Positions 2,663 through 40,045 are shown, counted from the first letter of the stretch. The stretch: DNA of 51,874 nucleotides from Candidatus Dojkabacteria bacterium (GCA_015489595.1 WFZK01000002.1:1-51874); one strand, 5' to 3'. Numbers and translations are program-made. The notes: generated by a model from the sequence alone, not told the origin.

Positions 2663-2716
2663 AAGGGGGGCTGGGGAGAAAATCCAAGGAGGTCGATTTT
2701 CTCCCCAGCCCCCCTT
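2663..2716. repeat. Dispersed palindrome family copy 1
   Basis: Perfect 22-bp arms AAGGGGGGCTGGGGAGAAAATC / complement, 10-nt loop. Confidence 0.95.
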
Positions 2717-2861
2717 AATTACCATTTGTCTGCTGTTCTAGATTACCCTGCTGGCAGGCAACTTCCCAGTACCATGGAAAAGTAGGCTACTTTAGGGCGC
2801 GTAGAAAGATCTAGTATCTGTGCGCTTCTCCTAGCATCCATATGTCTTGCCTGTTTTTTTC

Positions 2862-3242
2862 TTAGAGAGGCGTAAGTACCATCTTAGCGAATATGACCAT
2901 CAGCCCTATGATCCAAACAGACCACCACATCATCGGGATTAGCTCGAATTTAAAGGCAGGTTTAAACTTAATAGCCAAGTGGATGAGATTTAGTAAAGTA
3001 AGGATCGTAGCTGACAGGCCTGCTGCTATTTCTGAGATGATGAGGCTCATGATACCTATCCTCCTGTAGAATTTCAGATGAGTTTCAGGATCGTATGGAA
3101 TAAAATGTGGGTTATTAATCAGCCCGATAAAGGTCTGAAAAAAGATAATAGTGAGGATTAAAATAAAACCAATGAAGCTTGCGGTCTGAGAGGATAGATG
3201 TATTCTAAGTTTGAGCCTAAGTCGGGAGAGGTACTTTTGCAT
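2862..3242 (-). CDS. Hypothetical membrane protein (about 3 TM)
   Basis: Three hydrophobic segments; start moved to ATG 3242 because the track ORF extends into tRNA-His. Confidence 0.65.
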   Translation of the reverse strand: MQKYLSRLRLKLRIHLSSQTASFIGFILILTIIFFQTFIGLINNPHFIPYDPETHLKFYRRIGIMSLIISEIAAGLSATILTLLNLIHLAIKFKPAFKFELIPMMWWSVWIIGLMVIFAKMVLTPL

Positions 3243-3253
3243 GATAGTAGCTG

Positions 3254-3326
3254 GGTGACCAGCGGGATTCGAACCCGCGACCACCTGTTCCACAGACAGG
3301 CGCTCTACCACTGAGCTATGGTCACC
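3254..3326 (-). tRNA. tRNA-His(GTG)
   Basis: Cloverleaf GGTGACCATAGCTCAGTGGTAGAGCGCCTGTCTGTGGAACAGG...GGTTCGAATCCCGCTGGTCACC; encoded G-1 opposite C73; full CCA not encoded. Confidence 0.97.
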
Positions 3327-3386
3327 AGTGTTTGTAATTATAACACGGCTTTGCTACACTAGAATAATTAATATGGAAGGTTCTAT

Positions 3387-4520
3387 GTGGGAAGTTTGAA
3401 GATTTTTCTGCGTACCATCAATGGTAGACTTGTAGTCTTTCTTTTGTTCTTTAGTGTAGCTTTAATGAGCTTAGCAATTGCCTTCCCTGGACCTTTTAAC
3501 AAGGCTACTGGCGGTGTATGTGCAGGCATCATACCGGGAGGGAAGATCAGTACCGAAGATGTCATCTTAGGGTTTTTTAATTTAGAGGAGGCCGAGATTG
3601 AATACATCCCGCCGGTTGCGGCCGAACGTCTTCAGTCAAGAGTCGTGGTCGAAGGTGACGCTTTAGAAATTTCCATAAAACTGAAAGACGTAAATTTCTA
3701 CGGCTATCAGGGAGATATCGGATTCAGAGAAATAATTTATTCGGGGAAGGATTACATTAAGCCGGAAGGCTCTGACCCCAAGCGGATGAGGGAAGTTCTA
3801 ACAAGACTTTTCTTCAAGAGGGTGAACCCTAAAATGATGGCGTTTTTGAAGACAAATCTGCCATATTCTTATATCTTTGAGGTTCTTGAGGGTAAAAGAT
3901 GGCTTAGGATGAATGTGCCTAAAGATCAGGCACAGTATGTTAAATTTACTGATCAGGATACGAGGCGGCTGGCTAGAATTCTTTCTCAAGCCGTCGAAAT
4001 AAAACGCGAGACTCGAATGAAATGTTGCGTGAACCTAGAGCTGAGTCTTAGCAAAAGTGGTCTTCTTAAAGCCTTGCAGGATTTTAAGGATGATCCGTTA
4101 TCTGAGAAGTTTGCAAAAAAGTTTAAACGTACTCCGACCGAGTTTAAGAGCTCCCTTGGAGCTGCGATAGAGATGGTTAAACGTGAGCCTAAAGAGAGCA
4201 TAGAAGCCTTCAGAGTTGTTGCTAAGATAAGAAGGGTCTGGGGTAAGGTCGTACCTGTGAGTCTTAGGGGTTATATGGTGATAAACCAACAGATCGCCAC
4301 CTCGATGCGGAAGGAGCTAGCTTCTACGCAGATAGAAGAGTTAGAGAAACAGCTAGGAAAGGAGTTGGCTTCTGAGATTATCATCTACTTTAATGACGCG
4401 GTATCCCAGGGTAAGCTGGATTTCGGAGAGCTGCGGATAAAAGTTTCTCGCGATCTCCCCTCTATTACTCCTCCGACTCCGTATGTAGACTTGGAGGAAA
4501 TAATAGGCAGTCTCCCTTAA
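3387..4520 (+). CDS. Exported/membrane-anchored hypothetical protein, paralog A
   Basis: N-terminal hydrophobic helix; colinear similarity to 4667..5833. Confidence 0.8.
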   Translation: MGSLKIFLRTINGRLVVFLLFFSVALMSLAIAFPGPFNKATGGVCAGIIPGGKISTEDVILGFFNLEEAEIEYIPPVAAERLQSRVVVEGDALEISIKLKDVNFYGYQGDIGFREIIYSGKDYIKPEGSDPKRMREVLTRLFFKRVNPKMMAFLKTNLPYSYIFEVLEGKRWLRMNVPKDQAQYVKFTDQDTRRLARILSQAVEIKRETRMKCCVNLELSLSKSGLLKALQDFKDDPLSEKFAKKFKRTPTEFKSSLGAAIEMVKREPKESIEAFRVVAKIRRVWGKVVPVSLRGYMVINQQIATSMRKELASTQIEELEKQLGKELASEIIIYFNDAVSQGKLDFGELRIKVSRDLPSITPPTPYVDLEEIIGSLP

Positions 4521-4666
4521 TTTAGGTGAGGTTGGTTCTTGCGCGGTCAGGTCACGGTGCGAGTGGGGGCAGATACAATTTTTGCTTCACGCCCGCACTG
4601 TATTTGTAAATAGCTTGTGGCTTTGCTATACTAGATTATCTAAGAACTAAATTAAGAGTCAGTTTT

Positions 4667-5833
4667 ATGGAAAAAGTAAAAGCTTTTCTGAATACCACGC
4701 TGGGTAAGCTCGTTGTGATAGCTGTAGTTTTTGTTGCAGCTTTGGGTGGTCTAGCTTTTGCCTTCCCAGAGCAGTTTGACCAGGCTACAGGAGGTGTCCT
4801 CTCGAATGTGTTACCAGGCGGACAGGCCAAGATAGAGAGGGTCCTAGAAGATATTGCAGAAGTTAAAAGAGTAGAGATTGAGTATGTACCTCCGGTTGCT
4901 TCTAAGTATGTCGAGTTTAAAGTCGTTAGTAATAATTCCGAGGTTGGGTACTCCAAGTTCACTCTAAAGCTTAAAAATTTGAATATAATGGGATATAGCG
5001 GCGACATAGGTATAGAAGAGATTACAGGGCGCAAAGAAGTTTTCTTAAAGCTTAATCTGTCTAATCCACAGGTGGTTGAGCAGTTGCTTTTGCAGCAGTT
5101 GGGGGGAAGAAAAGTTGATCCCCGTGCACTTGCGTATATAAAGAACACCCCACCCTATTCATACATTTTTGAGGTTTTGGAGGGTAAAAAGTGGATAAAA
5201 ATGGACGTGGAGTCATTGGCAGGCATGGTCTCGACTGGCTCCTCAAAGTTTCCCAACAAGCCTATAAAGCTAAGCGAGGAAGAAAGCAAAAGACTTATGA
5301 AGATGTTTGCTAAGGTGTTGGTGGTCAAGCAGGTCTCGCATGAGGATTGCTGCACTAAGTATAAGTTAGGGCTAGATAGACAGAAGCTAATAGAAGCTTT
5401 AAAAGAGCTCAGAGAAGATCCTATAGCCAGCAAATTTGAGCAGAGTTATGGGAATTTTAAAAAGGCATTAAATCAGATGATTTCAGAACTGTCCAAGGCT
5501 TCTGACAGCGAGTTTGAAAACACCACTATGGTGCTAGGTGTAAGAAAGCAGGGAGGTCATTTCGTGCCAGTGATGATGCGATTTTATGTAGCTTTAAATC
5601 AAAAGGCTGTTGATAATCTACGTAAGTCTTTAGCCCCAGAAAAGGTTGCTGAGTTAGAAAAGCAGGTGGGTAAAGAACTGGCCTCAGAACTTAAGAACTA
5701 CCTTAATAGAGCAGTCTCGGAGCGCCGAATGGATTTAGGGGAGATTAGATTCAGCAAGGTGAATAACGTGCCTCAGGTTACACCGCCCAGCAACTTTGTG
5801 GATGCTAAGGATTTGATGCGAGGGTTAAAATAG
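4667..5833 (+). CDS. Exported/membrane-anchored hypothetical protein, paralog B
   Basis: Shares ATGGV, IEY.PPVA, GY.GDIG, PYSYIFEVLEGK.W, CC and ELEKQ.GKELASE blocks with paralog A. Confidence 0.85.
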   Translation: MEKVKAFLNTTLGKLVVIAVVFVAALGGLAFAFPEQFDQATGGVLSNVLPGGQAKIERVLEDIAEVKRVEIEYVPPVASKYVEFKVVSNNSEVGYSKFTLKLKNLNIMGYSGDIGIEEITGRKEVFLKLNLSNPQVVEQLLLQQLGGRKVDPRALAYIKNTPPYSYIFEVLEGKKWIKMDVESLAGMVSTGSSKFPNKPIKLSEEESKRLMKMFAKVLVVKQVSHEDCCTKYKLGLDRQKLIEALKELREDPIASKFEQSYGNFKKALNQMISELSKASDSEFENTTMVLGVRKQGGHFVPVMMRFYVALNQKAVDNLRKSLAPEKVAELEKQVGKELASELKNYLNRAVSERRMDLGEIRFSKVNNVPQVTPPSNFVDAKDLMRGLK

Positions 5834-5855
5834 AGACGTGTTCGATAAATAAAAA

Positions 5856-6554
5856 TTGAGCAGGGGGCTGATGTCGTTTAAGAAAAGGTTCGCAATGTCC
5901 ACGGTCAAGAAGAGTAGAGTCGCCACTAAAAGGCGCCTCTATATTTTGGGGGATCAAGCGGAGAAGGAACTTATAAATAAAGGGGTTCTAAACAAGGTGG
6001 TTTTTAAATGGAAGGCTCCCGATAGGATAGCCATTGATAAGGATAACTTTAAGTTTGCGAGCCTTGGAGGTGTTCTTTTTTTGGTGGGGCTGTACTTTCT
6101 TTGGATAGGGAAACCCCTATTTGCGGTAGCAGTGGCGGCTGTGTTTTTTCTTTATTATGTTTTGTATACAACTCCAGCAAGGGAGGTCGAGCATTCGATA
6201 GAGCTTTTGGGAATTAGGAGTTTTGGGGTGCTTTATCCCTGGGATAATCTTATTAATTTTTGGTTTGCTGAAAAGGACGGCAACCTGGTGTTGTATGTTT
6301 CGACTACTTTGGCTTTTCCTACAAGATTGATGATGGTAGTTCCTTCGAGAGAGGAGGCTCAAAAGATTCTCCTCTCTTTGGTGAAATATCTCCCCTACCG
6401 TAGATTGATCAAGAAGCAGTCCTGGTGGGATAAGACTGTTTACGGAAGATATCTGCCTCCTGAAGAGATAGTAGATGAGGATACAGTTGCGGAATTGGTA
6501 GACGAGTATAACAAAATAAAAGCCAAGGTTAGAAAAAGAAGAAAGAGTCCGTAA
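5856..6554 (+). CDS. Hypothetical membrane protein (2 TM plus PH-like soluble region)
   Basis: TM hairpin followed by GI...G.LYPW..L..FW pattern typical of bacterial PH-like domains; exact start uncertain. Confidence 0.65.
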   Translation: MSRGLMSFKKRFAMSTVKKSRVATKRRLYILGDQAEKELINKGVLNKVVFKWKAPDRIAIDKDNFKFASLGGVLFLVGLYFLWIGKPLFAVAVAAVFFLYYVLYTTPAREVEHSIELLGIRSFGVLYPWDNLINFWFAEKDGNLVLYVSTTLAFPTRLMMVVPSREEAQKILLSLVKYLPYRRLIKKQSWWDKTVYGRYLPPEEIVDEDTVAELVDEYNKIKAKVRKRRKSP

Positions 6555-6569
6555 GTGCTATAATAATAC

Positions 6570-7232
6570 ATGAACTTCACCTATCAAGGCATTCAGTTTG
6601 CACTTTACGAGCACGATACCGCCTACGTAGGGTATCAGGGGAGGCACTTTTATTTTGATCCTTTTAAAGTACCTGAGGGATTGCCCCCTGCTGATGTTAT
6701 CTTTATCACCCATGATCATTTTGACCACTTTTCACCTGAAGATATAGATAAGCTAGCCACAGAAGCTACATCTCTTGTCGTGCCTGAGAGTATAGAAACC
6801 GTTGTAAAACAGAAGGTTAATCTTCGCCTCTATTCAGTAGAGATCGGCGAGACGTATACCCTTTTTGATCTAGAGATAACCCCTATTCCGGCCTACAACG
6901 TGAACAAATTTAAGGCTCCGGGAGAGGTTTTTCATCCTAAAGCTGCGGGATACGTGGGATACTTTGTGAAGTTTGGTGAAGTAGGAGTTTACTTTGCAGG
7001 GGACACCGATGCTATCCCAGAGATGCAGCAGCTTAAGGGGAAAGTTGATGTGGCATTCTTACCAATATCTGGGACTTATGTAATGACTATGGAGGAGGCA
7101 CTAGAGGCTGCAGAGATGATTGGGCCGAAGATTATTGTTCCTATGCATTATGGAGCAATCGTAGGAGAGCCAGATATGGGCCGCAAGTTTGCTCAGATGG
7201 TTGGTGATAAGTATATTGTTTATCCTAAATAA
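6570..7232 (+). CDS. MBL-fold metallo-hydrolase (UPF0173/UlaG-like)
   Basis: THDHFDH, YFAGDT, PMHYG motifs. Confidence 0.92.
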   Translation: MNFTYQGIQFALYEHDTAYVGYQGRHFYFDPFKVPEGLPPADVIFITHDHFDHFSPEDIDKLATEATSLVVPESIETVVKQKVNLRLYSVEIGETYTLFDLEITPIPAYNVNKFKAPGEVFHPKAAGYVGYFVKFGEVGVYFAGDTDAIPEMQQLKGKVDVAFLPISGTYVMTMEEALEAAEMIGPKIIVPMHYGAIVGEPDMGRKFAQMVGDKYIVYPK

Positions 7233-10871: not shown

Positions 10872-10923
10872 TTTAGGGGCTGGGGCCCCAAAGGAAGTTA
10901 GCGATAACGGACTGTCCTGTATG

Positions 10924-10953
10924 TTGACTTTATAGGGTTTAATGGTATATAAT
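10924..10953 (+). promoter_or_regulatory. Sigma-70 promoter for small peptide gene
   Basis: TTGACT (10924-29), 18-nt spacer, TATAAT (10948-53). Confidence 0.65.
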
Positions 10954-12538: not shown

Positions 12539-12556
12539 TAGGTATTGTAGTGCAAT

Positions 12557-12607
12557 TTAGGGCGTGGGGCAAAATGCGGGAGTAGCGCATTTTGCCCCAC
12601 GCCCTAA
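12557..12607. repeat. Dispersed palindrome family copy 2
   Basis: Perfect 22-bp arms TTAGGGCGTGGGGCAAAATGCG, 7-nt loop. Confidence 0.95.
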
Positions 12608-12683
12608 GGTGGGCTCGTCTTTCATGGTGGAGGAGAGTCGCTATACGTAGGGTTATTCAAAAAAACTTGGGAGGGAAGCAATT

Positions 12684-12735
12684 TTAGGGGGCTTACGCAA
12701 AATCGGCTTTTTTCGATTTTGCGTAAGCCCCCTAA
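12684..12735. repeat. Dispersed palindrome family copy 3
   Basis: Perfect 22-bp arms TTAGGGGGCTTACGCAAAATCG, 8-nt loop; includes the stop codon of the O-antigen ligase-like gene. Confidence 0.95.
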
Positions 12736-14105
12736 TTTCGTCTTTTGTCCCGATGTATTCCCCACCACCAGGTAAGAGGGTCCCAGAATCCGAAGTAGAA
12801 AATGGTTGATACGGATAAGAAAGGTAGGGCTAGAGAAAGCGCGGTTGTAAATGCGCTGTCAGCGGAGGGTTTGTCTAAGGTAATCTTTATTTGTCTTATG
12901 TAAAGAACCCACAGATATATAAGTATAGCCACATAAACCACAAAGCCGGGTAGGCCTTGTTCCATAATAAGGGTGGCATAAAGTGAGTGGGCAGATGCTC
13001 CAAATTTAGCTTTAGGATCGATCTTCTCAATGTACACCATGGGAAAACTCCCTAAGCCCCATGGGATAAGTTTGTGAGACAATGCAAGCTTTACAGCTAT
13101 TGAGCTTAGACGCACATGGGTTCTTGCTGAGGCATCTCGGGTTACAGAGAATACGGATTTTACATATCTTGTGGTTGTTTTAATTACTTGAGATCTTACG
13201 GGTGTCATAAGGATAAGGCCTACTATAAAAAGTGTGGTAAGAATTGTCCTTACTGCAACCAATTTAATCACCGATAGCGCTATTGAATGTTTCTTTACAA
13301 TTCCGTAAGCTACCAGTGGGGCCATCACGGCGATAAAGCCCAGCAGTGCACTTCTTGAGAATGTAAAGATGTAATTGCCTATTGTCAGTATTTGAATCTT
13401 TGTGAGCCAGTCGCTGTAATTTTGTTCAAGCTTAGGAGAAAGATAAAGTACAACAGAGATCGCAAGTACGATAAGTAGAAACATCGCATAAACGTTTGTG
13501 TCGCCTAAAAGACCAGGGGGACGAAGAATATAATGCTTGTAGCTTAGATATTGGGCAAGGGGCTTGTCTATAAAGTAGCCGTTGAATAGGAACTTTCTAA
13601 ATAGCAGTGGAAGTTTTTTGTATCCTGATCTGAATCTGTATATAGTGTAGACCTGTAGGATACTTAGAAGAAAGCCGTAGGCCACGATAAAAAACATCGC
13701 CTTTATCCAGAGTCCAATAATCTTAAGTTTTAGCCTGGATTTTATAAGCCATCTAGCCCAGATTGATGTGGCAAATCCCAGGAGATAGCTTATATGAAGA
13801 TAGGCGAGCATACTTATGCTCAAAGAGAGGTATTTACTAAACACTAAGCTTATGAAATTTACTAAGCTAAGAGAACCGAAGATTATCACTTGAATTTTGT
13901 ATGTTTGTAAAAATTGTTTTAGCCCAAGATCAGCGATTTCTAACAATACTATCACTGCAGCGATCGCACTTAAGAGTAGGAGCCCTGGATTTATATGTTT
14001 GTTTAAGGAGCTAATAGATATGGTAACCGTAAAGGCTCTAAATAAAAGTAGTATCGGAGAAAAAGCCCACAATATAAGCATCGTGCGCTTTAGGGATTTT
14101 TTCAT
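12732..14105 (-). CDS. O-antigen ligase/Wzy_C family membrane protein
   Basis: Multi-TM; R..G..GD.N, TFSRSA, WG.G.F, AHSLY...E.G..G motifs; start placed at 14105 by -10 position. Confidence 0.88.
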   Translation of the reverse strand: MKKSLKRTMLILWAFSPILLLFRAFTVTISISSLNKHINPGLLLLSAIAAVIVLLEIADLGLKQFLQTYKIQVIIFGSLSLVNFISLVFSKYLSLSISMLAYLHISYLLGFATSIWARWLIKSRLKLKIIGLWIKAMFFIVAYGFLLSILQVYTIYRFRSGYKKLPLLFRKFLFNGYFIDKPLAQYLSYKHYILRPPGLLGDTNVYAMFLLIVLAISVVLYLSPKLEQNYSDWLTKIQILTIGNYIFTFSRSALLGFIAVMAPLVAYGIVKKHSIALSVIKLVAVRTILTTLFIVGLILMTPVRSQVIKTTTRYVKSVFSVTRDASARTHVRLSSIAVKLALSHKLIPWGLGSFPMVYIEKIDPKAKFGASAHSLYATLIMEQGLPGFVVYVAILIYLWVLYIRQIKITLDKPSADSAFTTALSLALPFLSVSTIFYFGFWDPLTWWWGIHRDKRRN

Positions 14106-14292
14106 TTTAAATTCTAGCATAGAGAGTGGAGTTGGTGGGGATGCAGGGGGCTGGGGTCTCCAATGGTAAATGACGATTCTATCTTCTGCGCCTTTAATTG
14201 TTTTATCGTTCTAGGAGGCGATTTTCTCAGGGTGCCAAATAAAACATATTTTGACGTGCAGGGTTTACCCTATTTGCCCGCGCCTGCAACCG

Positions 14293-15273: not shown

Positions 15274-16551
15274 GTGAGGGTCGCCATAGTACATGATAAA
15301 CTTTGTGAGCCCGGAGGGGCAGAGTTTATTCTTAAGATACTTATGAAAATTTTCCCTAGCGCCGACATTTACACATTATTTTATGACCGGACGCAGTATC
15401 CTTTTCTTAAGGAGAGGCGTGTGATTACTTCTTTCCTTGACGTGATATGCAAGGTGCCCCTTCTAAAATCAAGATACAGGTTGCTGTTTCCTTTTGTATA
15501 CTGGGCTTTTTCGAGTTTTGATTTAAGCGCCTATGATGCGGTAATTAACATCAGTTTTATAGGTGGACACACTGCTGGGGAGAAGGCTTTAAGTTCAGAT
15601 GTAGCAAAGCAGAGTAACATGCGGCGAGTTTTAGGTTCTGTAGACGGGTTTGCCGTTGGCAAAAAATCTGATGCCGGTTTACAGATTCATACTAACGGCG
15701 GTATTCCTAACAGAAAGCCTTTAAAAATTGTATATTTCCAAACTCCTCCTAGACATCTGTGGATAGAGCAAGACAGATATTTGTCGTCTGTTCCGGGAAT
15801 TTTTCTCCCCATTGCAAAGAAGGTTTGGAATTATCTAAAAGCGAAAGACTTAAATGTGGCCCCGTCGCTGTGGTATGTTTTAGCTAATTCTACAGAGGTA
15901 AAAAAAAGGGTTGAGAAGGTCTACGGCATAGACAACGTGCAGGTGCTTTATCCACCAGTTGAGGTAAGAAAAATAATTAAGGCGAGGCAGGTGCGCCGGG
16001 TTAAAAAAGGCGATTTCTATCTTATTCTTTCAAGGCTTATGGAGTATAAGCGTTTTGATATAGCAGTTTCTGCGTTTGCGTCTCTAAGGGTAAAAAGATT
16101 GATTGTGGCAGGGACAGGGCCAGAACTCGCTAAACTCAAGCGTATAGCTTCCGGGGCGAAAAATATAGAATTTTTAGGCCGTGTCGACGAAGCTACTAAG
16201 CTAGATCTGTTGGCAAGGGCAAAGGCATTGATTTTGCCTGGAAGGGAAGACTTTGGGATTGTGATGGCAGAGGCTTTGGCTGCAGGGACCCCAGTGATTG
16301 GGTACTACAAAGGAGGGGCTGCCGAGATACTTACGGGTAGGCAAGCAAATGTTGCCGAACCTGGCCTTCAGCCTGGTGGCGTTTTGATTGAAGACCAAAC
16401 TGTTAAAGGAATTGTTTCAGCTATTAAGCTAATAGAGAAGCAGCGCTGGCCTGTTAGAAAGCTTCAGGCTTTAGTTGAAAAATATGATGTCTCAAACTTT
16501 GTGGAGAAGTTTAAGGACGAGGTCTTTAAGGGGCTTGCGCCGGAATCGTAG
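15274..16551 (+). CDS. Glycosyltransferase family 4
   Basis: RVAIVHD...GGAE, YKR.D, EDFGIVMAEALAAGTPVI motifs. Confidence 0.93.
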   Translation: MRVAIVHDKLCEPGGAEFILKILMKIFPSADIYTLFYDRTQYPFLKERRVITSFLDVICKVPLLKSRYRLLFPFVYWAFSSFDLSAYDAVINISFIGGHTAGEKALSSDVAKQSNMRRVLGSVDGFAVGKKSDAGLQIHTNGGIPNRKPLKIVYFQTPPRHLWIEQDRYLSSVPGIFLPIAKKVWNYLKAKDLNVAPSLWYVLANSTEVKKRVEKVYGIDNVQVLYPPVEVRKIIKARQVRRVKKGDFYLILSRLMEYKRFDIAVSAFASLRVKRLIVAGTGPELAKLKRIASGAKNIEFLGRVDEATKLDLLARAKALILPGREDFGIVMAEALAAGTPVIGYYKGGAAEILTGRQANVAEPGLQPGGVLIEDQTVKGIVSAIKLIEKQRWPVRKLQALVEKYDVSNFVEKFKDEVFKGLAPES

Positions 16552-16596
16552 GGTTGGGGGCAAAAATCGACTTTTCTCGATTTTTGCCCCCAACCC
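16551..16596. repeat. Dispersed palindrome family copy 4
   Basis: Perfect 20-bp arms GGGTTGGGGGCAAAAATCGA, 6-nt loop; begins at GT4 TAG stop. Confidence 0.95.
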
Positions 16597-19267: not shown

Positions 19268-19269
19268 GA

Positions 19270-20668: not shown

Positions 20669-21436
20669 ATGTTAAGAAAGCAGAATTTATTAAAACGTGC
20701 TCTTGGCAGTTGGTTATTATTTGTTGCGATTGTAGGGATCTTCGCAATAATAGGTGCAGGATTTGGAGCTGTAGCCTTTAAGCTGCAACGTCCTAGGTCT
20801 ACGGTTACAGCAGTATTTGCTTATTTTCCACCGATTAATTACGGAGCTGATTCCCCGGACTTTAAGGCTCTAGGTTCTCCCTATGTTTCAGCAGCAGTGC
20901 GTGCACTCATACGGGACAGAATAAGCAGCACTCTGTCTGAGGCTGACCCAGATGTTAGGGTTGTTTTTGAAAATTTAGGTTTAAAAGACGACTTCCCTTT
21001 TAGGGTAAAGATTGTCACTGCTGCTCCTGATAAGGCTAAAGAAGAATTAGTAAAAACCGCCGCTGAGTTAGAGAAGGGTAATAGCTATATGGGGGCTCTA
21101 TCATCTTCGTATAAGAATGTTTTAGATAAGTGGCTCACCACTTATAAGAGTTATAGGGAGAAAGTTAACAAGAATTTTGGGGCAAAGAGTGTAGACTCTT
21201 TGCGCCTGTCTTTGTATCTTAACGAAAAGATATCTGCAATTGAGACTTTAAGAAGACTGCCTGTGGGGGTAAAGATGATAACTGGACCTAAGGTTTCTAA
21301 ACCCGTGTTGCCGGTTCTGCCTCTTTATTTGCTAATTGGTGCTGTAGTTGGAGCGAGTATAGGGGTAGGTTTTACATTCGTAGCATTCGCTTTAAGCCCT
21401 AAGGGAGCGGTCCGAGCCCGTGGGAAGTTAATTTAG
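20669..21436 (+). CDS. Wzz-like chain-length determinant/polysaccharide co-polymerase
   Basis: N- and C-terminal TM, coiled central region, Pro-rich segment before Gly-rich TM2; follows wzy-like gene. Confidence 0.6.
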   Translation: MLRKQNLLKRALGSWLLFVAIVGIFAIIGAGFGAVAFKLQRPRSTVTAVFAYFPPINYGADSPDFKALGSPYVSAAVRALIRDRISSTLSEADPDVRVVFENLGLKDDFPFRVKIVTAAPDKAKEELVKTAAELEKGNSYMGALSSSYKNVLDKWLTTYKSYREKVNKNFGAKSVDSLRLSLYLNEKISAIETLRRLPVGVKMITGPKVSKPVLPVLPLYLLIGAVVGASIGVGFTFVAFALSPKGAVRARGKLI

Positions 21437-21437
21437 G

Positions 21438-21488
21438 GGGCTTAGGGGGGCAAAAATCTACCTTTCTCGATTTTTGCCCCCTAAGCCC
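21438..21488. repeat. Dispersed palindrome family copy 5
   Basis: Arms GGGCTTAGGGGGGCAAAAATC / GATTTTTGCCCCCTAAGCCC (one bulge); between convergent stops. Confidence 0.92.
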
Positions 21489-21960
21489 TTACCCAGGAGT
21501 CAAGGTATTTTATAAGCTTTGCTTTAGAATTCGACGGCTTTATGGGCTTAGGGCGCCTGCGTATAAGTTCTACCAGATCTTTGAACGTATAAGCCACCGG
21601 AAAATAAGGATTGTCGTTTTTAAGCGCGGACACTAACTCTAGTTGTTGATCATCTAGGTGCTCTTTTAGTTTCGCTTTCCTGGGAACTACTATAAGCGGT
21701 TTGTTTAGAGTGACCACGTCTAGTATGGTACCTACTCCTGCGTGAGCTATTATTAGGGAAGCTTTTTTTATTGTGTTTTTATAATCGCTGTAGCTTAGAT
21801 AGTCTACTGATTGAATTTTTGAGCTTTTAAATTTATATGATGTAGAGCCGGTCTGAACCAAAACTGCCTGCGCTGTGATTTTTAGCTTAATAAGCTTATC
21901 TATATATCGACACAACCTGTAGAAGGGGAATTTTTCAGTGCCTAAGGTTACAAATATCAT
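21481..21960 (-). CDS. PssE/Cps14G (Alg13-like) glycosyltransferase subunit
   Basis: MIFVTLGT..PF.RL, HAG.GT, VPR....EH.DDQQ. Confidence 0.92.
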   Translation of the reverse strand: MIFVTLGTEKFPFYRLCRYIDKLIKLKITAQAVLVQTGSTSYKFKSSKIQSVDYLSYSDYKNTIKKASLIIAHAGVGTILDVVTLNKPLIVVPRKAKLKEHLDDQQLELVSALKNDNPYFPVAYTFKDLVELIRRRPKPIKPSNSKAKLIKYLDSWVRA

Positions 21961-22559: not shown

Positions 22560-23252
22560 TTATTTCTTTAGCACGCCTTTTAGGTACTTTTTGAGCTTCT
22601 TTTTTGCCTGATCCGAGTGGGGTTTTCCTATAAATACTGAGGTTGCATCTTTGCCACAGTGGGGAACAATGGCATCTTTACCTCCGGAGTGGCTACTGAG
22701 GAGTTCGGTCACGTCATAGACTTTATTCTCTATGATTATCCAGCAGTCTCTTTCGCTATTATGGGTTGCTACCTCATCCCTTGTATATTCTGGAAGCTCC
22801 TTGTGATTGTTTAAGGTTTTTACATATTCAAGTACTTCGGCTGCATGCCCTTGGGGCTTTACACTATGCCAGGATTTAATCATATCAAGCTCAGGGAGCT
22901 TTAGGAGAAAACTGCTTCGGTCTACTGTAAGGTAGGTTCTGCCCCCTACTGTCTTCTTTTTTAGTACATTGAAGGCTTTCAGGAGTTTAGCCTCAGGGTC
23001 GGACAGTAAGTGTATTGTAAGATTATGTTTCTCTATGAATTTTTTGTGTGATTCTTCAGAATTCTTCGAGACCCCTATGAGAAGTGTATCTAGTTTTTCA
23101 AATTGTTCCTTAAGCTGTGAAAATTCTTTAGCTTCAGTTGTGCACCCTGGAGTGTTGTCGCGAGGGTAAAAGTAAACCAGGATGTATTTATACCCTTTAG
23201 TATTTATGTTGCTTTGCCTGAGAAATTCTTTTAGGAGTTCGGTGTGAGACAT
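22560..23252 (-). CDS. bcp: Peroxiredoxin Bcp/PrxQ fused to cytochrome b5-like heme domain
   Basis: YFYPRDNTPGCTTEA; C-terminal EVATHN...DCWIII..KVYDVT...HSGG...GKDAT..F...HS. Confidence 0.9.
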   Translation of the reverse strand: MSHTELLKEFLRQSNINTKGYKYILVYFYPRDNTPGCTTEAKEFSQLKEQFEKLDTLLIGVSKNSEESHKKFIEKHNLTIHLLSDPEAKLLKAFNVLKKKTVGGRTYLTVDRSSFLLKLPELDMIKSWHSVKPQGHAAEVLEYVKTLNNHKELPEYTRDEVATHNSERDCWIIIENKVYDVTELLSSHSGGKDAIVPHCGKDATSVFIGKPHSDQAKKKLKKYLKGVLKK

Positions 23253-23391
23253 GTAAAGATTATACAGGGACGGTTGAGATTTTCCAATCCTAAATGGATG
23301 GTTTTTGTAGGGGGGGTATTCAATGGGATAAGGGAGGCGCAGTTTAAATAGGGCGTGGGCAGCTTTCTGTATAGATGGAGATATCTATGTA

Positions 23392-23442
23392 AGGGGTGCG
23401 GGGGAGAATTTGTTAAGTTTCAAATTCTCCCCCGCACCCCCT
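23392..23442. repeat. Dispersed palindrome family copy 6
   Basis: Perfect 21-bp arms AGGGGTGCGGGGGAGAATTTG, 9-nt loop; between divergent genes. Confidence 0.93.
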
Positions 23443-23498
23443 ATTTGCATTTAAGAATTTCTTCTGATATACTACCTAAGCTTTTAAGAATTTGGCTC

Positions 23499-24368
23499 AT
23501 GAGTAGATCCAAAAATTCACAAACCCAGGCTGATTACATCGAAATAACAATTAGTCCGTGGGTAGCTTTTTCGGTAGTGGCTATTGTTGCCATTATTGTT
23601 TTTGGGGCGGTTTATATCTTTACTCATAAAGGTGGTAGCCAAAACCAGAATGGTGGATCTCAGGCCCAGGCTCAGCAAGCACAGAATAAAATAGTATTTC
23701 CTGCTAAGGTTGAGAATTCCCCTGTCTTGGGTAAGGATTCTGCACCTATTACGATTTTTGAGTTCAGTGATCTGGAGTGTCCATTTTGTAGAGCTTTCTA
23801 TTATGGAATGCCAAGCCGAGGAATAAAAGGAGCGTGGTCAGAGATAGAGAAGCTCATCAAAGAGGGTAAGGTTCGATATGTTCACAAGAATTTTGTTGCT
23901 GTGCCTAGCCATAATCCAGCTGCTAAGCTAGAAGCAAAGGCCACTTATTGTGTTTATAAACTTGGAGGGACTGATAGGTATTATGAGTATATTCATAAGG
24001 TGTTTGAAAAAGCTGGCAGGGTCGGAGCTGGGTACAATGGAGCGTATCAGTCAGGTGGAGAAGGGAAGCTTAAAGAGGAGTTGGCTAAATTGGCATCAAG
24101 TATGAAGATTGATAAGGATAAATTCTTAGCATGTATTAATTCTGCCGAGTCTGAAAAACTCTACAAGCAGGATGAGAAGTACATACAAAATGTCATTGGT
24201 CCCAAGGCCTCGCAGTATATGCAACAGGGCAAACTTGATGGTTTGGGCACTCCAATGTTTATAATCTGCAAGACTCCAAAAGATAATAATACCGAATGTC
24301 AGGGGGAGGTCTTGATGGGGGCTTATCCTTTTAGCTACTTTGAGAGAATTATCAATAAATTAAAATAA
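23499..24368 (+). CDS. Membrane-anchored DsbA-family thiol-disulfide oxidoreductase
   Basis: TM anchor, AP.TI.EFSDLECPFC, GTP cis-Pro loop, GAYP; start at ATG 23499. Confidence 0.9.
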   Translation: MSRSKNSQTQADYIEITISPWVAFSVVAIVAIIVFGAVYIFTHKGGSQNQNGGSQAQAQQAQNKIVFPAKVENSPVLGKDSAPITIFEFSDLECPFCRAFYYGMPSRGIKGAWSEIEKLIKEGKVRYVHKNFVAVPSHNPAAKLEAKATYCVYKLGGTDRYYEYIHKVFEKAGRVGAGYNGAYQSGGEGKLKEELAKLASSMKIDKDKFLACINSAESEKLYKQDEKYIQNVIGPKASQYMQQGKLDGLGTPMFIICKTPKDNNTECQGEVLMGAYPFSYFERIINKLK

Positions 24369-31988: not shown

Positions 31989-32005
31989 TATAGAGATTTA
32001 AAGTC

Positions 32006-32476: not shown

Positions 32477-32479
32477 TTT

Positions 32480-33193: not shown

Positions 33194-33196
33194 GCT

Positions 33197-34719: not shown

Positions 34720-34908
34720 AGTGGGCTATGACTCTTTCAGGGGGTTCACCTTAGGAAATGGCTGAGTTTCCCTGAAGGTGCTTTGGGATTGTGGTCTGTC
34801 TCTACTTCTATTTATGCAGTGCTGGTAGGCTTTTAAGGGAGTGGATGGAAACGATTCTTCTTTTCCTCTGATATTTTGCTGGCCGTTTTTTATGAAGTAT
34901 AATAAACT

Positions 34909-36837
34909 GTGAAGGTCACCAAAGTTTTAATCTTTATTCTGCTGTGGATAGGATTACTCTTTTTTAGCCCTTCAATAAAGGCTGGTATAGAAGATGACGT
35001 AAAAGATGCGGTATCCCAGGCTCAACTTAAGCTGGCTTCTGAGCCTTCCCGTGTTTCCCTCCAAAAACCTGTCTATCATGCTTTCGTAGGTAGACTTTCA
35101 GCACAAGAGAACGCAATGCATGTTACAGAGATAATAGCGGTAGTGAATACCTCGAGAAATCACGGCGTGTTTATAGCCTTGCCGCTTAGTGCCTATCTCT
35201 CAGATAAAAAAACATTCCATGTTGTTGATGTAAAAGTAGATAAAGCTTTAAAGTATGATGGTCAGAGGCCAGTAGAAGCTCCGTTTTTTACACAGATTGA
35301 GCCTGTTGGTAGGTATGGTGAGAAGGCGTTTTTTATCTTTGTGGGGGATAAAAACAAAACCGATCCTGGCAAGCATACCTATGTAATTTCATATACTGTT
35401 TATAATGTATCTGAGACTGTAGGTAACGTAGATGTGGTGGCATATGACTTGGCTCGGGTTAGAAAGGGTAGCTTTATTTATCCTTCAGAGTTTTATGTTG
35501 TGTATGTTCCTAAGAGTTTGAGAGAATTTCATATATATCTTGATGAGTTCGAATATAATGAGCATGTGGTCAAACAAGATGTCGGGACAGAGGTTAGGAT
35601 AGACTTCCCAATAAAAGGCGGAACTTACGATGTACTTACATTTTCAGGGAAATTCCCTGCCGGCACCTTTGCTGTCACGGATAAGATCAAAAAGCTACGG
35701 AGCCAAGGAGATACTATGATTCGGAATATTAAGCTAGGGAAGGCTTTGAGAAAATTGGTATTGTGGGGCTCGCTGGCCTATGCAGCCTGGCTTATCTTTT
35801 CTATCTATAGCTTTTATCAGAAATATGGCAAAGAGCGCTTCACAAAGGCTTTCCCTCCTGTTTATGTGCTTAGTAAAAAGTTGAGATCTATAAGTCCAGC
35901 CTTGGCGTCCTTTATTTTTTATTATGAAAATAATCTTAAACTTCAGCGTGTTTTAACTTCTCAAATCTTAGAATGGGCTGTCTCTAAGGTTTTAGTTATT
36001 AATAAAGAGCCAAAGCAACCTACCCAACTTACGCTTCTTAAAAGGCTTGAGAGCTTTAGAGATAAAGCAGAGGAGCTTGTGTTTAATCTGTTTTTCAAAG
36101 ATAAGGATACCTTTACGGTGGCTCCTTCTTCTTTTACCAGGGGAGAACTCCTGTCGATGATTGGAGGGATTCGTCGGGAGTTTAAAGAGCGTTTCTTGGA
36201 GCATTCAGGAGATAGTGAAAGGAAAAAACTCACAGTTACTGTTTTTCTGATAGCTTTTGTTGGTCTTGTGGGGCTGTTTTTCGCCTATCCTGTCTTTGAG
36301 TTAGCCGGAGGAGTTTTAGCCCAGGTGGCAAATGGCAATGAGCTGTTTTTAGCGAGTCTTACTCTGATGGTCCCTGGGGTAGTTTGGCTTATTTTCTCTA
36401 GATACATGGGTAGACTAAATCAGGAGGGAATTGATCTGTACAGAGAGCTTCATGGTCTCTATCGATATATTAAGGCTGCAGAGGTTAAGCGGATAAAGTT
36501 TTTTAATGATCCTGACAAGTTGGTAAAACATTTTGAAGAGCTTTTACCCTATGCTGCGATGTTTGGGTTGTTTGATAAATGGGTAAAAGTATTTAAAGAT
36601 ATCTTTAAGCTAAAGAATATTGATTATCAGGCATACTGGTTAAGGGGTCAGACCTTAGGCAGTGTAGAAGCAGCGACTGATGCTATAGATTCTGTGTATG
36701 AAAGCGTAGATTCTGCGATCTCTAAAACCGTGGAGTCAATGGTAAAAGAAAGCGGAAGCTTCTCTTCAGGAGGCGTCTCAAGTTCTGGCGGCTCAGGAGG
36801 AGGTTTCAGCGGTGGCAGCAGCAGCGGCGGGTGGTAG
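34909..36837 (+). CDS. DUF2207-family membrane protein
   Basis: Signal peptide, VTE.I, Y.ISY.V, TMs, FE.LLPYA..FG...W, Gly/Ser tail ending GGW. Confidence 0.88.
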   Translation: MKVTKVLIFILLWIGLLFFSPSIKAGIEDDVKDAVSQAQLKLASEPSRVSLQKPVYHAFVGRLSAQENAMHVTEIIAVVNTSRNHGVFIALPLSAYLSDKKTFHVVDVKVDKALKYDGQRPVEAPFFTQIEPVGRYGEKAFFIFVGDKNKTDPGKHTYVISYTVYNVSETVGNVDVVAYDLARVRKGSFIYPSEFYVVYVPKSLREFHIYLDEFEYNEHVVKQDVGTEVRIDFPIKGGTYDVLTFSGKFPAGTFAVTDKIKKLRSQGDTMIRNIKLGKALRKLVLWGSLAYAAWLIFSIYSFYQKYGKERFTKAFPPVYVLSKKLRSISPALASFIFYYENNLKLQRVLTSQILEWAVSKVLVINKEPKQPTQLTLLKRLESFRDKAEELVFNLFFKDKDTFTVAPSSFTRGELLSMIGGIRREFKERFLEHSGDSERKKLTVTVFLIAFVGLVGLFFAYPVFELAGGVLAQVANGNELFLASLTLMVPGVVWLIFSRYMGRLNQEGIDLYRELHGLYRYIKAAEVKRIKFFNDPDKLVKHFEELLPYAAMFGLFDKWVKVFKDIFKLKNIDYQAYWLRGQTLGSVEAATDAIDSVYESVDSAISKTVESMVKESGSFSSGGVSSSGGSGGGFSGGSSSGGW

Positions 36838-36847
36838 TATAATAAAT

Positions 36848-37372
36848 ATGCAAGAGATAAGGGATCTTTTAGAGCTTCCTTCACCCATTTTCCATATTAT
36901 TTTTGATCTTAGTAAGGTCATAGTTCCAGTTAAGTTGAAGCAACAGATGCTAGAAGCTGAGACTGGGGGGAGTACAGGTTTTAAACCACCGCCCTGGTAT
37001 CTTAACTTAATCTCTTCACTTAAAACTAGATTTACCTTTGGGATTTTGTCTAATACTTCAGTTCCAGATCTTTATCTTAAATATCTTAAACTAGATAAAT
37101 ATTTCAGTCCTAGGATCTTTACCCTCTGGGAAGCCCCACCTAAGCCACATCCGGATGCATTCAGAAAATATCTAGAGAAGGTAAAGATGCCAGTCGAAAA
37201 TATTGCCATGATTGACGATAAACCACACAACCTGGTTGTGGCTAAAAGTTTTGGAATCTATACAGTTTGGGCAAGACTCCCAGAACAAAAGGATCCTGAT
37301 ATTGTTCATCAACCACTCCTTGATGCCTGGATTGAGTGGCATGCTTATTTGGACAGGCTAACAGAGAGGTAG
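36848..37372 (+). CDS. HAD-superfamily hydrolase-like protein
   Basis: IIFDL..V, ILSN, KP.P..F, IDD...N...A...G; motif I reads DLS rather than DxD. Confidence 0.75.
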   Translation: MQEIRDLLELPSPIFHIIFDLSKVIVPVKLKQQMLEAETGGSTGFKPPPWYLNLISSLKTRFTFGILSNTSVPDLYLKYLKLDKYFSPRIFTLWEAPPKPHPDAFRKYLEKVKMPVENIAMIDDKPHNLVVAKSFGIYTVWARLPEQKDPDIVHQPLLDAWIEWHAYLDRLTER

Positions 37373-37405
37373 AGAACGGCTAAATTCTGTTCGCGGGGAA
37401 TGCCT

Positions 37406-38128
37406 CTAAGTAAAGTTCGTTTTGGTTAACTCTATTAGGGCATTTATGTCTCCTTTGTTTTTAAAAATTAGGTTACCAACTTTTTGTAAGAATGGGCGAA
37501 GTTGTGGATAAAAATTCGCATCTGAGTATGAGATTTTATTTTCTGGCCAGAGTCTCGTCACCACTATTCGGTCTATATAAGAAAGATTGAATGCAATTGC
37601 TTCAGTTAAGGCCCATCGCTGTTGATCACTTAGCTTAGCTTTAAGCTTGTTTAGATACGCATGAATATAAGATTCTATAAATTCGATCGCGAAAATAGGT
37701 AACCCTTTTGGTTTAGCATGCTTGTACCAAACGGAAAACACGCACCCTTCCCATGCGCTTGTAGAGAAAAATCCGCTAATGACGCATACAAAAGGAAACG
37801 GATTGAAGGAGTAATGGATGGCAAGTAGGGTGTTAACCCTGGAGACTAGAAATTTTAAACGTTCGGGAGTGTAGAATATTTTGAAAAACTTAAGGGCAGA
37901 AGAAAGTTCTCTTCTGTGAGCCTTGTGGAATTTTTCTACAAAACTATAAATTAAATCCCATTTCTCTTCGTTTGACTTGATGGATCTAAATTTGCGAATA
38001 AGAGAGTAGGGTATATTGCGGCCCTTTAGCCTTTTTTCTTCATCGGCCGGGTCATGAGGAAGTTGCTCTATAATATTCCACAATATGTTAGCATCGCTTG
38101 TGCAGGAGGTTGTAAAACGTACCAGCAT
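37406..38128 (-). CDS. Hypothetical protein
   Basis: 240-aa ORF with no clear family. Confidence 0.65.
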   Translation of the reverse strand: MLVRFTTSCTSDANILWNIIEQLPHDPADEEKRLKGRNIPYSLIRKFRSIKSNEEKWDLIYSFVEKFHKAHRRELSSALKFFKIFYTPERLKFLVSRVNTLLAIHYSFNPFPFVCVISGFFSTSAWEGCVFSVWYKHAKPKGLPIFAIEFIESYIHAYLNKLKAKLSDQQRWALTEAIAFNLSYIDRIVVTRLWPENKISYSDANFYPQLRPFLQKVGNLIFKNKGDINALIELTKTNFT

Positions 38129-38260
38129 ACTGCTATAGTATTCTATACGATTTTTAAGGTTTTGTGGTTTAAGGAGTGGTGGTATAAGTTTAGGGTGGGG
38201 GATCGCTGTTTGTTAGATAGGGGGAGAAGGCAGGAGTCTGTTTGAGAGCTTGGTGAGATT

Positions 38261-39541
38261 ATGAAAAAGCTTGGAAGGATTTTCCTGACAATAATCATAA
38301 TCTTTACTTTCCTGGTAAATATTTTACAGAGTTTTGTGGCGGTAGAAATAGTTAGGTGGCATCTAAAGAAGCAGGGTTATGTAGGTAAAAAGAGTATGCC
38401 TTCGTCCCCTGTAGGTGTTGTTGGAGCTGCAGGAGTAGTGAGGCTTTATACTCATTCATGTGTTAGGTTTAAAGTGCCTGCCTTTGACGTGACTGAAAGG
38501 TTAAGCTTGGCTGGGAAAGCGTATACAGTATGTTCAGAAGGGGAGGGTACTGGATTTGCAGTCACTAAAGATTATATAGCAAGTGCGGGGCACGTTTTGA
38601 TGCCGTCGAGTAAGGGTATCTTTTATGGATATGCAGCCTATCTTTTGGCCTTTTTATCTAAAGGGAGAGCACTCCCCGGATATTTAGATAATGGTTTTTC
38701 CAGTGATCTTTTAGCTGCAGGTAGAAGGTTGGGATACTCCAGACCTGGTTCCACATTTTACAAGAAGGTTCTTAAACAGATTGCAGATAGGTTAAGCGAG
38801 GATAGCTTTACTTTGGCTAAGCATAAAGTTTGGGCAACTCTTGGAGCTTCTGTAACTTGTACGCCTACCGGGCGGTGTAATTCGTTTTATCATAAAGTGG
38901 TTCAAGTAATTCCTGTAGATGGATATGTTCCCAAGGCGAATTTTAACTGGAAGATCGGGGCGCCCACGACGGGGGGAGTCTTGCCTGATTTGGCAGTTGG
39001 TAAGCTTACGGAGCGACTTGGTGTGACTCCCTTGCAGCTAGGGGATTCACGATACATTGATGTTTCCGAAAGATTAATCCTCGTTGGTTTTTCTCCTCTC
39101 GTAGATTCTTCTCTCCCCGATGGAGTAATCTTACCTCACGTACAGGAGGGGACGTTATACACCTCTGAATACTCCCCTTACTTTATGTTTTCTGATTTTT
39201 TAATAGTAAAAATGCCAGGGTTTCCAGGTGAAAGCGGTAGTCCGGTCCTTAATTCCAAGGGAAAGGTCGTGGGTATATGCGCCTTGGGGGAGGTAGAGGG
39301 GATACTATCATCTGAAGATGAGGTGATGATGGCTGTAAAGGTTTCGCTTTTAAAAGAGCTTTTGGACAAACACGGCATAAAGTACAACCATTCTTCTTCG
39401 TCTGAGGTGTTATTAAGAAGTCTTCAGACCTCTAGTAAACATTCGAGGAATAAGCTTGAACAGTTTATAAGATTCGAGCCAGCGTATTATTCTGAGCTTT
39501 TAGGGCATTACTTTTCCGTTAGGGAAGACAGGCCTAGGTGA
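38261..39541 (+). CDS. Membrane-anchored trypsin-like (S1) serine protease
   Basis: GTGF, SAGHV (His), PDLA (Asp), PGESGSPV...G.VVGI (Ser). Confidence 0.88.
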   Translation: MKKLGRIFLTIIIIFTFLVNILQSFVAVEIVRWHLKKQGYVGKKSMPSSPVGVVGAAGVVRLYTHSCVRFKVPAFDVTERLSLAGKAYTVCSEGEGTGFAVTKDYIASAGHVLMPSSKGIFYGYAAYLLAFLSKGRALPGYLDNGFSSDLLAAGRRLGYSRPGSTFYKKVLKQIADRLSEDSFTLAKHKVWATLGASVTCTPTGRCNSFYHKVVQVIPVDGYVPKANFNWKIGAPTTGGVLPDLAVGKLTERLGVTPLQLGDSRYIDVSERLILVGFSPLVDSSLPDGVILPHVQEGTLYTSEYSPYFMFSDFLIVKMPGFPGESGSPVLNSKGKVVGICALGEVEGILSSEDEVMMAVKVSLLKELLDKHGIKYNHSSSSEVLLRSLQTSSKHSRNKLEQFIRFEPAYYSELLGHYFSVREDRPR

Positions 39542-39643
39542 CAAGAGTTTGGATTTTACCTTACACTCGAGAGTACACCTATTTTTTTATGATAAGCGCT
39601 ACTTGGCTGCAAGATAATTCTAAGCGGCAAAGGGGAAAAGGTG

Positions 39644-39699
39644 GTAGGGGGGCTGGTGGCAAAATCGTAGAGACTCGATTTTGCCACCAGCCCCCCTAC
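39644..39699. repeat. Dispersed palindrome family copy 7
   Basis: Perfect 24-bp arms GTAGGGGGGCTGGTGGCAAAATCG, 8-nt loop. Confidence 0.95.
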
Positions 39700-39747
39700 G
39701 TTGCCTTTTATCTTCTGAGCCTGATACTATTAAAGTGTATGGGCTCT

Positions 39748-39999
39748 ATGCTTATCTTAGTGCAAGTCAAGCCGAAATCAAGGATGTATAAAGTAGAAAG
39801 ACTTCCAGACAATGCTGTGGTGCCGTTACCGGGGTTTTCAGGAAAGGTCTCTGCTATGTATAGGGTTTTCCTAAAGGAGCCTCCTGTTGACGGGAAGGCA
39901 AACACAGCGTTGGTCAAGTTGCTTTCAGATTACTTTGGCAAGCCTGTACGGATTTTAAGGGGGAAAGGTTCAAGGATTAAACTGATGCAGGTGGGGTAA
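39748..39999 (+). CDS. DUF167/YggU family protein
   Basis: V.VKP.S, PPVDGKAN..L..LLS.YF, I.RG..SR.K; start moved downstream of the palindrome (39748 or 39739). Confidence 0.88.
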   Translation: MLILVQVKPKSRMYKVERLPDNAVVPLPGFSGKVSAMYRVFLKEPPVDGKANTALVKLLSDYFGKPVRILRGKGSRIKLMQVG

Positions 40000-40045
40000 G
40001 GGGCTGGGGCGAAAATCGACTTTCTTCGATTTTTGCCCCAGCCCC
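40000..40045. repeat. Dispersed palindrome family copy 8
   Basis: 20-bp arms GGGGCTGGGGCGAAAATCGA with one G.T mismatch, 6-nt loop; immediately after TAA stop. Confidence 0.93.

Follow-up and report, generated by a model that had tools for sequence, protein, structure and literature searches.

The eight palindromes of about 50 bp present in a 51,874 nt stretch of Candidatus Dojkabacteria bacterium DNA (GCA_015489595.1 WFZK01000002.1:1-51874, referred to here as the window) are probably the terminal modules, or remnants, of a lineage-specific, non-coding and non-autonomous element resembling MITEs (miniature inverted-repeat transposable elements). This reading draws on terminal inverted repeats, flanking duplications of varied sequence, 159 loci in the genome and the failure to find the family in relatives. 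An earlier note, made from the window alone, had described the palindromes as a dispersed family with co-varying arms, similar to MITEs or to repetitive extragenic palindromic (REP) sequences, and this description held. Where the note was mistaken was in taking the ~50 bp palindrome as the mobile unit. The unit is a composite of about 175 bp, made up of a hairpin (A), a spacer and a second hairpin (B).

The genome that includes the window (G000; 825,502 bp over 47 contigs, with completeness rated at 93.49% and contamination at 1.67%) was recovered from a hydrothermal-vent sample. It contains 162 hairpins with at least 15 matched pairs, no more than one mismatch and a loop of 3–12 nt, and nearly all of these are family members; when a looser scan was combined with a motif filter, 152 of 205 hairpins belonged to the family. 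Two types were distinguished, type A with an inner stem resembling AAAAATCG and type B with an inner stem resembling AAAATG(T/C)G, and A and B hairpins were often found 67–105 bp apart. The spacer between them is conserved, both in 25 aligned A/B pairs and in an alignment of 40 copies (alignment A1). A full unit consists of hairpin A (~46 bp), a spacer of 70–86 nt and hairpin B (~45 bp). The two outer arms, that of A and that of B, mirror each other as inverted repeats that lead from a G-run through a variable middle to GCAAAAT, so the unit has terminal inverted repeats, and as each terminal repeat also pairs with an internal complement, each end of the unit is itself a hairpin. The ~175 bp between the outer G-run and C-run are too short for an open reading frame (ORF) encoding a transposase and lie well within the size expected of a MITE (less than ~400 bp).

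A profile of the composite, built from 22 A/B pairs, was used to search G000 with nhmmer, a genome-wide scan that the earlier note had proposed. The 159 non-overlapping loci detected, which make the family abundant beyond the window, include 63 full copies (at least 150 profile positions), 38 partial copies (90–149 positions), usually consisting of A and the spacer, and 58 loci that are a hairpin only. Together they occupy 20,148 bp or 2.44% of the genome. Based on rough ORF calls, from which all gene and intergenic counts for this genome derive, a family member is found in 115 of the 332 intergenic regions of at least 50 bp, and the family makes up 20.1 of the 68.3 kb of intergenic DNA. The copies are old and differ in age, with 95% identity for the best pair and a median of 61% (54% for the spacers).

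The ends of the unit are discrete. In the conservation profile, the consensus was 56–94% in the inner flanks and 67–94% in the terminal G/C runs, and beyond the outermost G-run (in A) and C-run (in B) it fell abruptly to 28–47% in the outer flanks. When boundaries were taken from the profile alignment and the expectation from permuted flanks, direct repeats of at least 4 nt were found exactly at the boundary in six of 48 full copies (0.74 expected, p=1e-4), and direct repeats of 4–6 bp were found in eight of the 48 when 1 nt of slack was allowed (1.62 expected, p=1.9e-4). An earlier, cruder method of setting boundaries had found duplications in 4 of 25 copies against 0.58 expected. The duplicated words, mostly 5 nt long, are all different (AATTA, TGTAA, AAATT, AGTCG, TAGTT, GGTA, AATT and TTTC), and all eight copies bearing them fall among the 24 highest-scoring of the 48. 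These features are consistent with insertion by a staggered-cut (DDE-type) transposase, which would have acted in trans and may since have been lost, may lie in an unassembled part of the genome or may be foreign. After insertion, decay of the spacer and the B end would give rise to partial copies and then solo hairpins, while the stems would be kept perfect by a cause acting at the DNA level, either template switching or a need for hairpins in mobilisation.

The search for a mobilising enzyme took in seven Pfam families over the G000 assembly. The Y1_Tnp family (PF01797), to which the transposases of IS200 and the REP-associated tyrosine transposases (RAYTs) belong, had no match in this genome but matched in 6 of 14 control genomes. 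Similarly, the TnpB zinc-ribbon (PF07282), the Tn3 transposase (PF01526) and the reverse transcriptase RVT_1 were all detected in control genomes and not in G000. The RAYT or IS200-IS605 HUH transposase flanked by copies that the earlier note had suggested looking for was thus not found in the assembly. This bears on a second explanation, namely that the units are a REP family of the type that forms bacterial interspersed mosaic elements (BIMEs) and REPINs, whose heterodimers are spread as single-stranded hairpins by a RAYT encoded in the unassembled 6.5% of the genome or since lost. The match in organisation is close, as REP palindromes occur singly or as heterodimers 20–100 bp apart with conserved spacers, singletons are remnants of dimers, and the families lie downstream of genes and are strongly lineage-restricted, according to the account in PMC3733652. 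The A/B heterodimer with its 70–86 nt spacer, the mixture of full, partial and solo copies, the position of hairpins after genes and the restriction to one lineage all correspond to these features. A TTAG-like tag is also present beside the G-run on the conserved inner sides, and a requirement for single-stranded hairpins would account for arms that co-vary.

In five places two composites lie head to head and have the middle hairpin in common, an arrangement like that of mosaic BIME clusters (C26:35978-36324, C36:41253-41511, C25:1222-1541, C17:28067-28316 and C7:8304-8598 of G000). However, the hairpins here are 45–55 bp with perfect stems of 20–24 bp, whereas REP sequences are imperfect palindromes of 20–40 bp. 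Only on the inner side is the TTAG-like tag conserved, and the outer side often carries its mirror image, making the tag palindromic in many copies, unlike the unpaired GTAG/CGTC found at one end of a REP. Duplications of varied sequence flank the full units, and to our knowledge elements of the HUH type make no target-site duplications. The view that the palindromes are substrates of a RAYT, which the earlier note had raised, is therefore not supported, and together with the missing PF01797 and TnpB matches this makes a REP origin distinctly unlikely. A related possibility, that the units are remnants of IS200/IS605-type ends, known as palindrome-associated transposable elements (PATEs), would account for a short unit that is hairpinned at both ends, each with its own hairpin type. 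The same lack of TnpA (Y1) and TnpB and the same duplications apply to it, the two end hairpins are alike and symmetric, and we consider it extremely improbable.

Candidates for the parent of a MITE-like element were also sought among the insertion sequences (IS) of G000. An rve-type (IS3/IS481-like) IS was found at five or more contig ends (C8:1-500, C46:1-331, C45:1-226, C23:8988-9142 and C22:9998-10161), with 96–99% identity between copies, and looks recently active. It was rejected as the parent element because its end is unlike the hairpin arms. A truncated transposase gene of the IS5 family lies in C22:8014-10161 (ORF 1468–2088 of that stretch, minus strand) and matches NF033581 only over profile positions 137–284, its 5′ part having been replaced by the rve IS. 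An arm-like 21-mer is found 135 nt past its stop codon (at approximately 1313–1333 of the same stretch), and the other end of the IS is missing. As a third of the larger intergenic regions contain an element, the 21-mer offers a possible, though weak, pointer towards the parent. No relative of the remnant protein turned up in metagenome contigs or among the other 220 class genomes. Two tyrosine recombinases located next to elements were given no weight for the same reason, namely that a third of the larger gaps contain an element.

No sequence relatives of the family were found in any collection searched. The exact arm pattern, found 39 times in G000, was absent from 40 relatives, ten of them from the same family, and the composite used as a DNA query matched none of the 220 other genomes of the class and nothing in plasmid or phage records. 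The pattern of the B hairpin had no match in JGI metagenome contigs. A GTDB-wide scan with the exact arm pattern, covering genomes other than that of the window, gave at least 93 stretches, of which 80 were listed. Those listed come from unrelated genomes, and none extends into a composite when examined with nhmmer. All are single, except that one metagenome-assembled genome contributes three contigs and two others contribute two contigs each. Hairpins of at least 13 bp numbered just two and one in 200 kb samples of two genomes from the same family, compared with 55 in 246 kb of G000, so long hairpins do not serve as a functional feature common to these small genomes.

The family is therefore not fixed across relatives, which would have been expected had the palindromes been ordinary terminators, the possibility raised in the earlier note. 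Nor was there a match to a described RNA family, as only two tRNAs in the window reached the Rfam gathering score and permissive E-values gave no more than sub-threshold generic hairpins. Searches of the literature on repeats in small genomes found nothing on this family, in a comparison that stopped short of the supplementary REP-family lists of PMC3733652. Streamlined genomes are usually poor in repeat elements of this kind. In this vent genome of ~0.85 Mb, a single family that was not found in relatives takes up 2.4% of all DNA and ~29% of the DNA between genes.

The symmetry of the stems is kept far better than their sequence. Over the 18 loop-proximal pairs, the two arms of a copy are 89% complementary, compared with 46% for arms taken from different copies, and all 18 pairs are intact in 65 of the 128 stems of type A and in 25 of the 70 of type B. 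In alignment A1, 90% of cells are paired, against 82% after shuffling and 37–52% with slid partners. In 30 of its 42 pairs changes are seen on both sides, and its 133 compensatory cells, against 44.6 for shuffled data, were not reached in any of 500 shuffles. The mean spacer divergence between nearest neighbours is 0.216. If stems drifted at the rate of the spacers, about 2 of 51 would be expected to be perfect (an arithmetic estimate), whereas 24 were for A and 18 for B. Perfect stems are thus far more frequent than drift allows, and something maintains the symmetry after insertion. Breakage of A stems is unrelated to spacer divergence (rho=0.09), and stems are mostly either perfect or badly broken.

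The constraint looks to act at the DNA level. Among 3261 stem pairs, mismatches included 33 G.T and 34 A.C, and in tandem contexts the sense strand had 19 G.T and 16 A.C, so wobble pairs are tolerated no better than A.C. Perfection was also independent of context (p=0.34): perfect stems numbered 21 of 39 where the flanking genes diverge, 53 of 111 where they run in tandem and 14 of 42 where they converge. The argument in the earlier note, that structure is kept over sequence and that the near-absence of G.T pairs points to DNA, is upheld by these figures, and its suggestion of intra-strand correction between arms fits the data. A candidate mechanism is known from quasipalindromes (work of Ripley and of the Lovett laboratory), where the growing strand changes template so that one arm is copied from its partner, leaving the repeat more perfect (described in PMC7202029). 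Such perfecting of inverted repeats would give co-varying arms and, as one arm is copied onto the other, apparently compensatory changes without selection. This is a mutational mechanism rather than an element family, and it is not known to have acted on a whole repeat family. The candidate alternative is that hairpin ends are required for mobilisation, and the data are compatible with both.

A more radical explanation is that mobilisation or upkeep follows an undescribed mechanism, using either an enzyme outside the HUH and DDE classes that recognises hairpin or cruciform ends, or DNA sites exapted by the host for topology or nucleoid proteins, as has been proposed for BIMEs. Both ends of the unit are long palindromes that remain perfect whatever the age of the copy, and the search of seven Pfam families revealed no known kind of transposase whose ends match. 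Nothing points positively to a new enzyme, and template switching combined with the loss of an ordinary transposase explains the same facts more simply; we therefore regard this explanation as unlikely. It is similarly doubtful that the palindromes are actively kept perfect by a dedicated DNA-level system, whether a hairpin or cruciform enzyme of this non-HUH/DDE kind or a host use of ~200 palindromes with a template-switch drive correcting the arms. If this were true, the tiny genome would be a natural test bed for the persistence and spread of perfect palindromes. With spacers that have drifted to ~54% identity while nearly half of the 18 bp stems are perfect, the family in any case provides a natural data set for weighing selection on hairpins against mutational correction of arms.

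Several observations weigh against a MITE-like origin. Forty of the 48 full copies have no duplication of at least 4 nt, so for these we infer, rather than show, a duplication at birth. The solo hairpins carry no duplication signal (1 of 52, with ~1 expected) and their origin from composites is likewise something we infer. Comparison of orthologous gaps, put forward in the earlier note as a way of finding empty sites, in part counts in favour of a MITE-like origin. In 85 gene pairs the two genes are neighbours in G000 as well as in a relative; five of the pairs have an element in G000, and at four of these five the gap in the relative is shorter, by 65 to 231 bp, while the 80 pairs without an element have a median gap difference of −5.5 bp. 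However, no empty site or insertion polymorphism was seen. In contigs from the source run there was no joint skipping an element, and coverage piles up from paralogous copies. A search of sequencing runs found this DNA in the source sample alone and in no RNA run. No transposase with ends matching the hairpin arms was found in G000, where the only IS5-family gene is a truncated remnant and the arm-like 21-mer near it could be due to chance.

The remaining points concern the position and folding of the units. Composites run B-to-A along the flanking genes in 39 of 57 tandem cases (39:18, p=0.0075), and of 148 neighbour relations between a hairpin edge and a stop codon, 27 span no more than 3 nt, compared with 2 of 153 for start codons; the distance from hairpin to start peaks at 30–80 nt. 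Both biases would fit an RNA role, or they may reflect where insertions are tolerated. Within the spacer, a 5 bp helix covaries between two spacer variants (A1 columns 104–108 with 129–133, approximately 12636–12665 of the window, minus strand), with U-A/C-G swaps at three pairs and many U.G pairs on the A-to-B strand only. A transposon model does not explain this helix, and the undescribed mechanism considered above gains from it to the extent that a strand-specific covarying helix is otherwise unaccounted for, though the covariation stems from just one or a few independent events. The possibility that the spacer contains a structured small RNA was considered and rejected, as the spacer folds much like shuffled sequence (mean z −0.4, and −1.0 for the reverse complement) and RNAalifold returns just the two hairpins.

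The biases raise the question of whether the hairpins exist mainly for use by the host in RNA, as tail-less terminators, stabilisers of 3′ ends or processing sites, with the repeat serving as a means of delivery. In addition to the orientation bias and the clustering at stop codons, loop polarity agrees with gene direction in tandem contexts (32:10) and tracks GC skew less well than it does gene direction. Genome-wide, the direction of about two thirds of the roughly called ORFs agrees with the GC skew. Sites with a stem followed by a T-tail are not enriched in the window (19 versus 17.7 and 17 versus 15.0 in shuffles), so the genome may lack ordinary terminators. However, hairpins are equally frequent in divergent and convergent regions (31 of 113 in each case), stems between divergent genes are no less perfect than those elsewhere, and on the sense strand G.U is not in excess of A.C. 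Two relatives from the same family with similarly small genomes manage without such hairpins, seven of the eight window copies have no U-tail, the spacer is not stably folded and no Rfam family reaches threshold. A primary function in RNA is on this evidence very unlikely, and the RNA stabiliser that the earlier note had named as an alternative found no support in the sequence analysis. Intrinsic terminators in particular were rejected, given the T-tail at one window copy of eight, the occupied divergent regions and the sequence and spacer that copies share, and the earlier note's view that these are not simple terminators was well founded. For the MITE-like element that we favour, effects of the 3′ hairpins next to stop codons on neighbouring mRNAs are possible side effects.

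Within the window, an inverted-repeat scan identified 12 pairs, and seven of these correspond to the palindromes of the earlier note, with arms of 20–24 nt and loops of 6–10 nt. The eighth, at 21438–21488, was seen directly in the sequence and contains a one-base bulge (six G against five C). All eight are therefore real, and the tally of six perfect repeats of 20–24 bp and two with a single defect was confirmed. Arms are 100% complementary at 39644 (24 nt), at 12684, 2663 and 12557 (22 nt each) and at 16551 (20 nt). The palindrome at 23390 has 23 nt arms that are 96% complementary, with the inner 20 bp perfect, and that at 40000 has 20 nt arms that are 95% complementary. The five other pairs in the scan are short, overlapping and 72–86% complementary, and are unrelated to the family. 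By an arithmetic estimate, a perfect 20 bp inverted repeat with a 3–12 nt loop would be expected about 1e-6 times per 52 kb. The eight copies share the frame of a G-run, a variable middle, and an A-run and TCG beside the loop, and differ in their middles, as had been described.

Two of the palindromes form the ends of one full unit, a third is an A end and the other five are solo. The full unit (12544–12744, A-to-B on the minus strand) was detected by nhmmer with E=1.7e-46 over profile positions 23–221 and was recovered in the alignments. It consists of a B hairpin (copy 2, 12557–12607, with a 7 nt loop), a spacer of the second variant (12608–12683, minus strand) that aligns with those of other composites, and an A hairpin (copy 3, 12684–12735). 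The unit is flanked by a putative 5 bp target-site duplication, AATTT, at 12554–12558 (1 nt outside the G-run) and 12734–12738 (1 nt outside the C-run), which the scoring, allowing 1 nt of slack, read as AAATT from the minus strand. ORF 12732–14120 (minus strand) has its stop codon inside the base of the A hairpin. This hairpin is also the exception to the statement that the copies lack U-tails, as 12686–12733 passed the stem-plus-T-tail scan; for the other seven copies the statement stood. The A hairpin of copy 1 (2663–2716, plus strand) begins a composite extending from 2657 to approximately 2835 (nhmmer match 2657–2801, profile positions 22–167), in which direct reading of the sequence revealed a recognisable spacer and a decayed B hairpin (approximately 2795–2832).

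Four of the solo hairpins are of type A and were matched by nhmmer. Copy 4 (16551–16596) abuts the stop codon of ORF 15274–16551 between convergent ORFs, and copy 5 (21438–21488, match 21424–21493), the one with the bulge, fills the gap between the convergent ORFs 20669–21436 and 21481–21960. Copy 7 was found at 39644–39699 (match 39643–39713), and copy 8 (40000–40045) begins right after the stop codon at 39997–39999. Copy 6 (23390–23443) is a divergent subtype that had no nhmmer match to the composite profile at E<=1e-3. It lies, as the earlier note had observed, between divergent ORFs, at 22560–23252 (minus strand) and approximately 23460–24368 (plus strand). The family is of relevance to annotation because its hairpins overlap stop codons and inflate ORF calls. 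No transposase was seen in the window, in agreement with the earlier note, although the Pfam scan took in only 10 of the ORFs in the window.

Further observations were made on the window and its genome. In one source-run contig, the loop of the first hairpin (2685–2694) is present as its exact reverse complement, which could be either a flip-flop polymorphism or an ambiguity in the orientation of a palindrome in a k=31 graph. ORF 2862–3311 (minus strand, 149 aa) overlaps the gene for tRNA-His at 3253–3325 (minus strand) and is probably spurious. ORFs 23355–24368 and 39538–39999 begin upstream of hairpins they could not contain, and their true starts are probably later. ORF 22560–23252 encodes a protein that combines an AhpC/TSA peroxiredoxin domain with a cytochrome b5-like one. 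Over the whole window the GC skew is uniform and very strong, ranging from +0.01 to +0.28 per 2 kb interval and mostly ~+0.2. Elsewhere in G000, a tRNA gene lies between two family-type hairpins at two sites (C16:1069-1347 and C36:41116-41311). Neighbouring contigs in many cases share exactly 151 bp with 100% identity, which points to cuts in the assembly graph, and several contig ends overlap by 350–919 bp at 94–98% identity and are probably strain variants.

The hairpin family has features in common with several known systems. Tn3-family ends begin with GGGG, as do those of the hairpin family. The Tn3-derived elements known as TIMEs are non-coding, ~260 bp long and flanked by 5 bp AT-rich duplications, with Tn3-type ends of 38–40 bp, and are mostly single-copy, perhaps as a result of transposition immunity (PMC4133298). 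The ~5 bp duplication is alike, but the family here has about 100 or more copies and a genome in which no Tn3 transposase was found. Classical bacterial MITEs such as Correia/NEMIS, RUP and MITEAba12 are small and non-coding, have terminal inverted repeats and duplications, occur as many intergenic copies and are mobilised in trans (PMC3184786). Small size, terminal inverted repeats, varied duplications and many dispersed copies were all found in the family described here. In classical MITEs, however, the two ends pair together as one hairpin, whereas here each end is its own palindrome, and no parent IS with matching ends was found for the family.

The element closest in layout is bcr1 of the Bacillus cereus group, which is non-coding, ~155 bp long, bounded by 5 bp direct repeats and scattered unevenly among strains. 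It has two independent stem-loops kept by compensatory changes and no assigned transposase (PMC3184786). The comparison is one of layout only, with no sequence relation claimed, and the structure of bcr1 is described at the RNA level. The present family differs from bcr1 in its perfect stems of 20–24 bp, the lack of a wobble signature, the many solo hairpins and a host that is not a Bacillus and has a genome of less than 1 Mb. The family as such thus resembles known MITE-like kinds, with a sequence that is new in the collections searched, and its most interesting side is the upkeep of its perfect palindromes.

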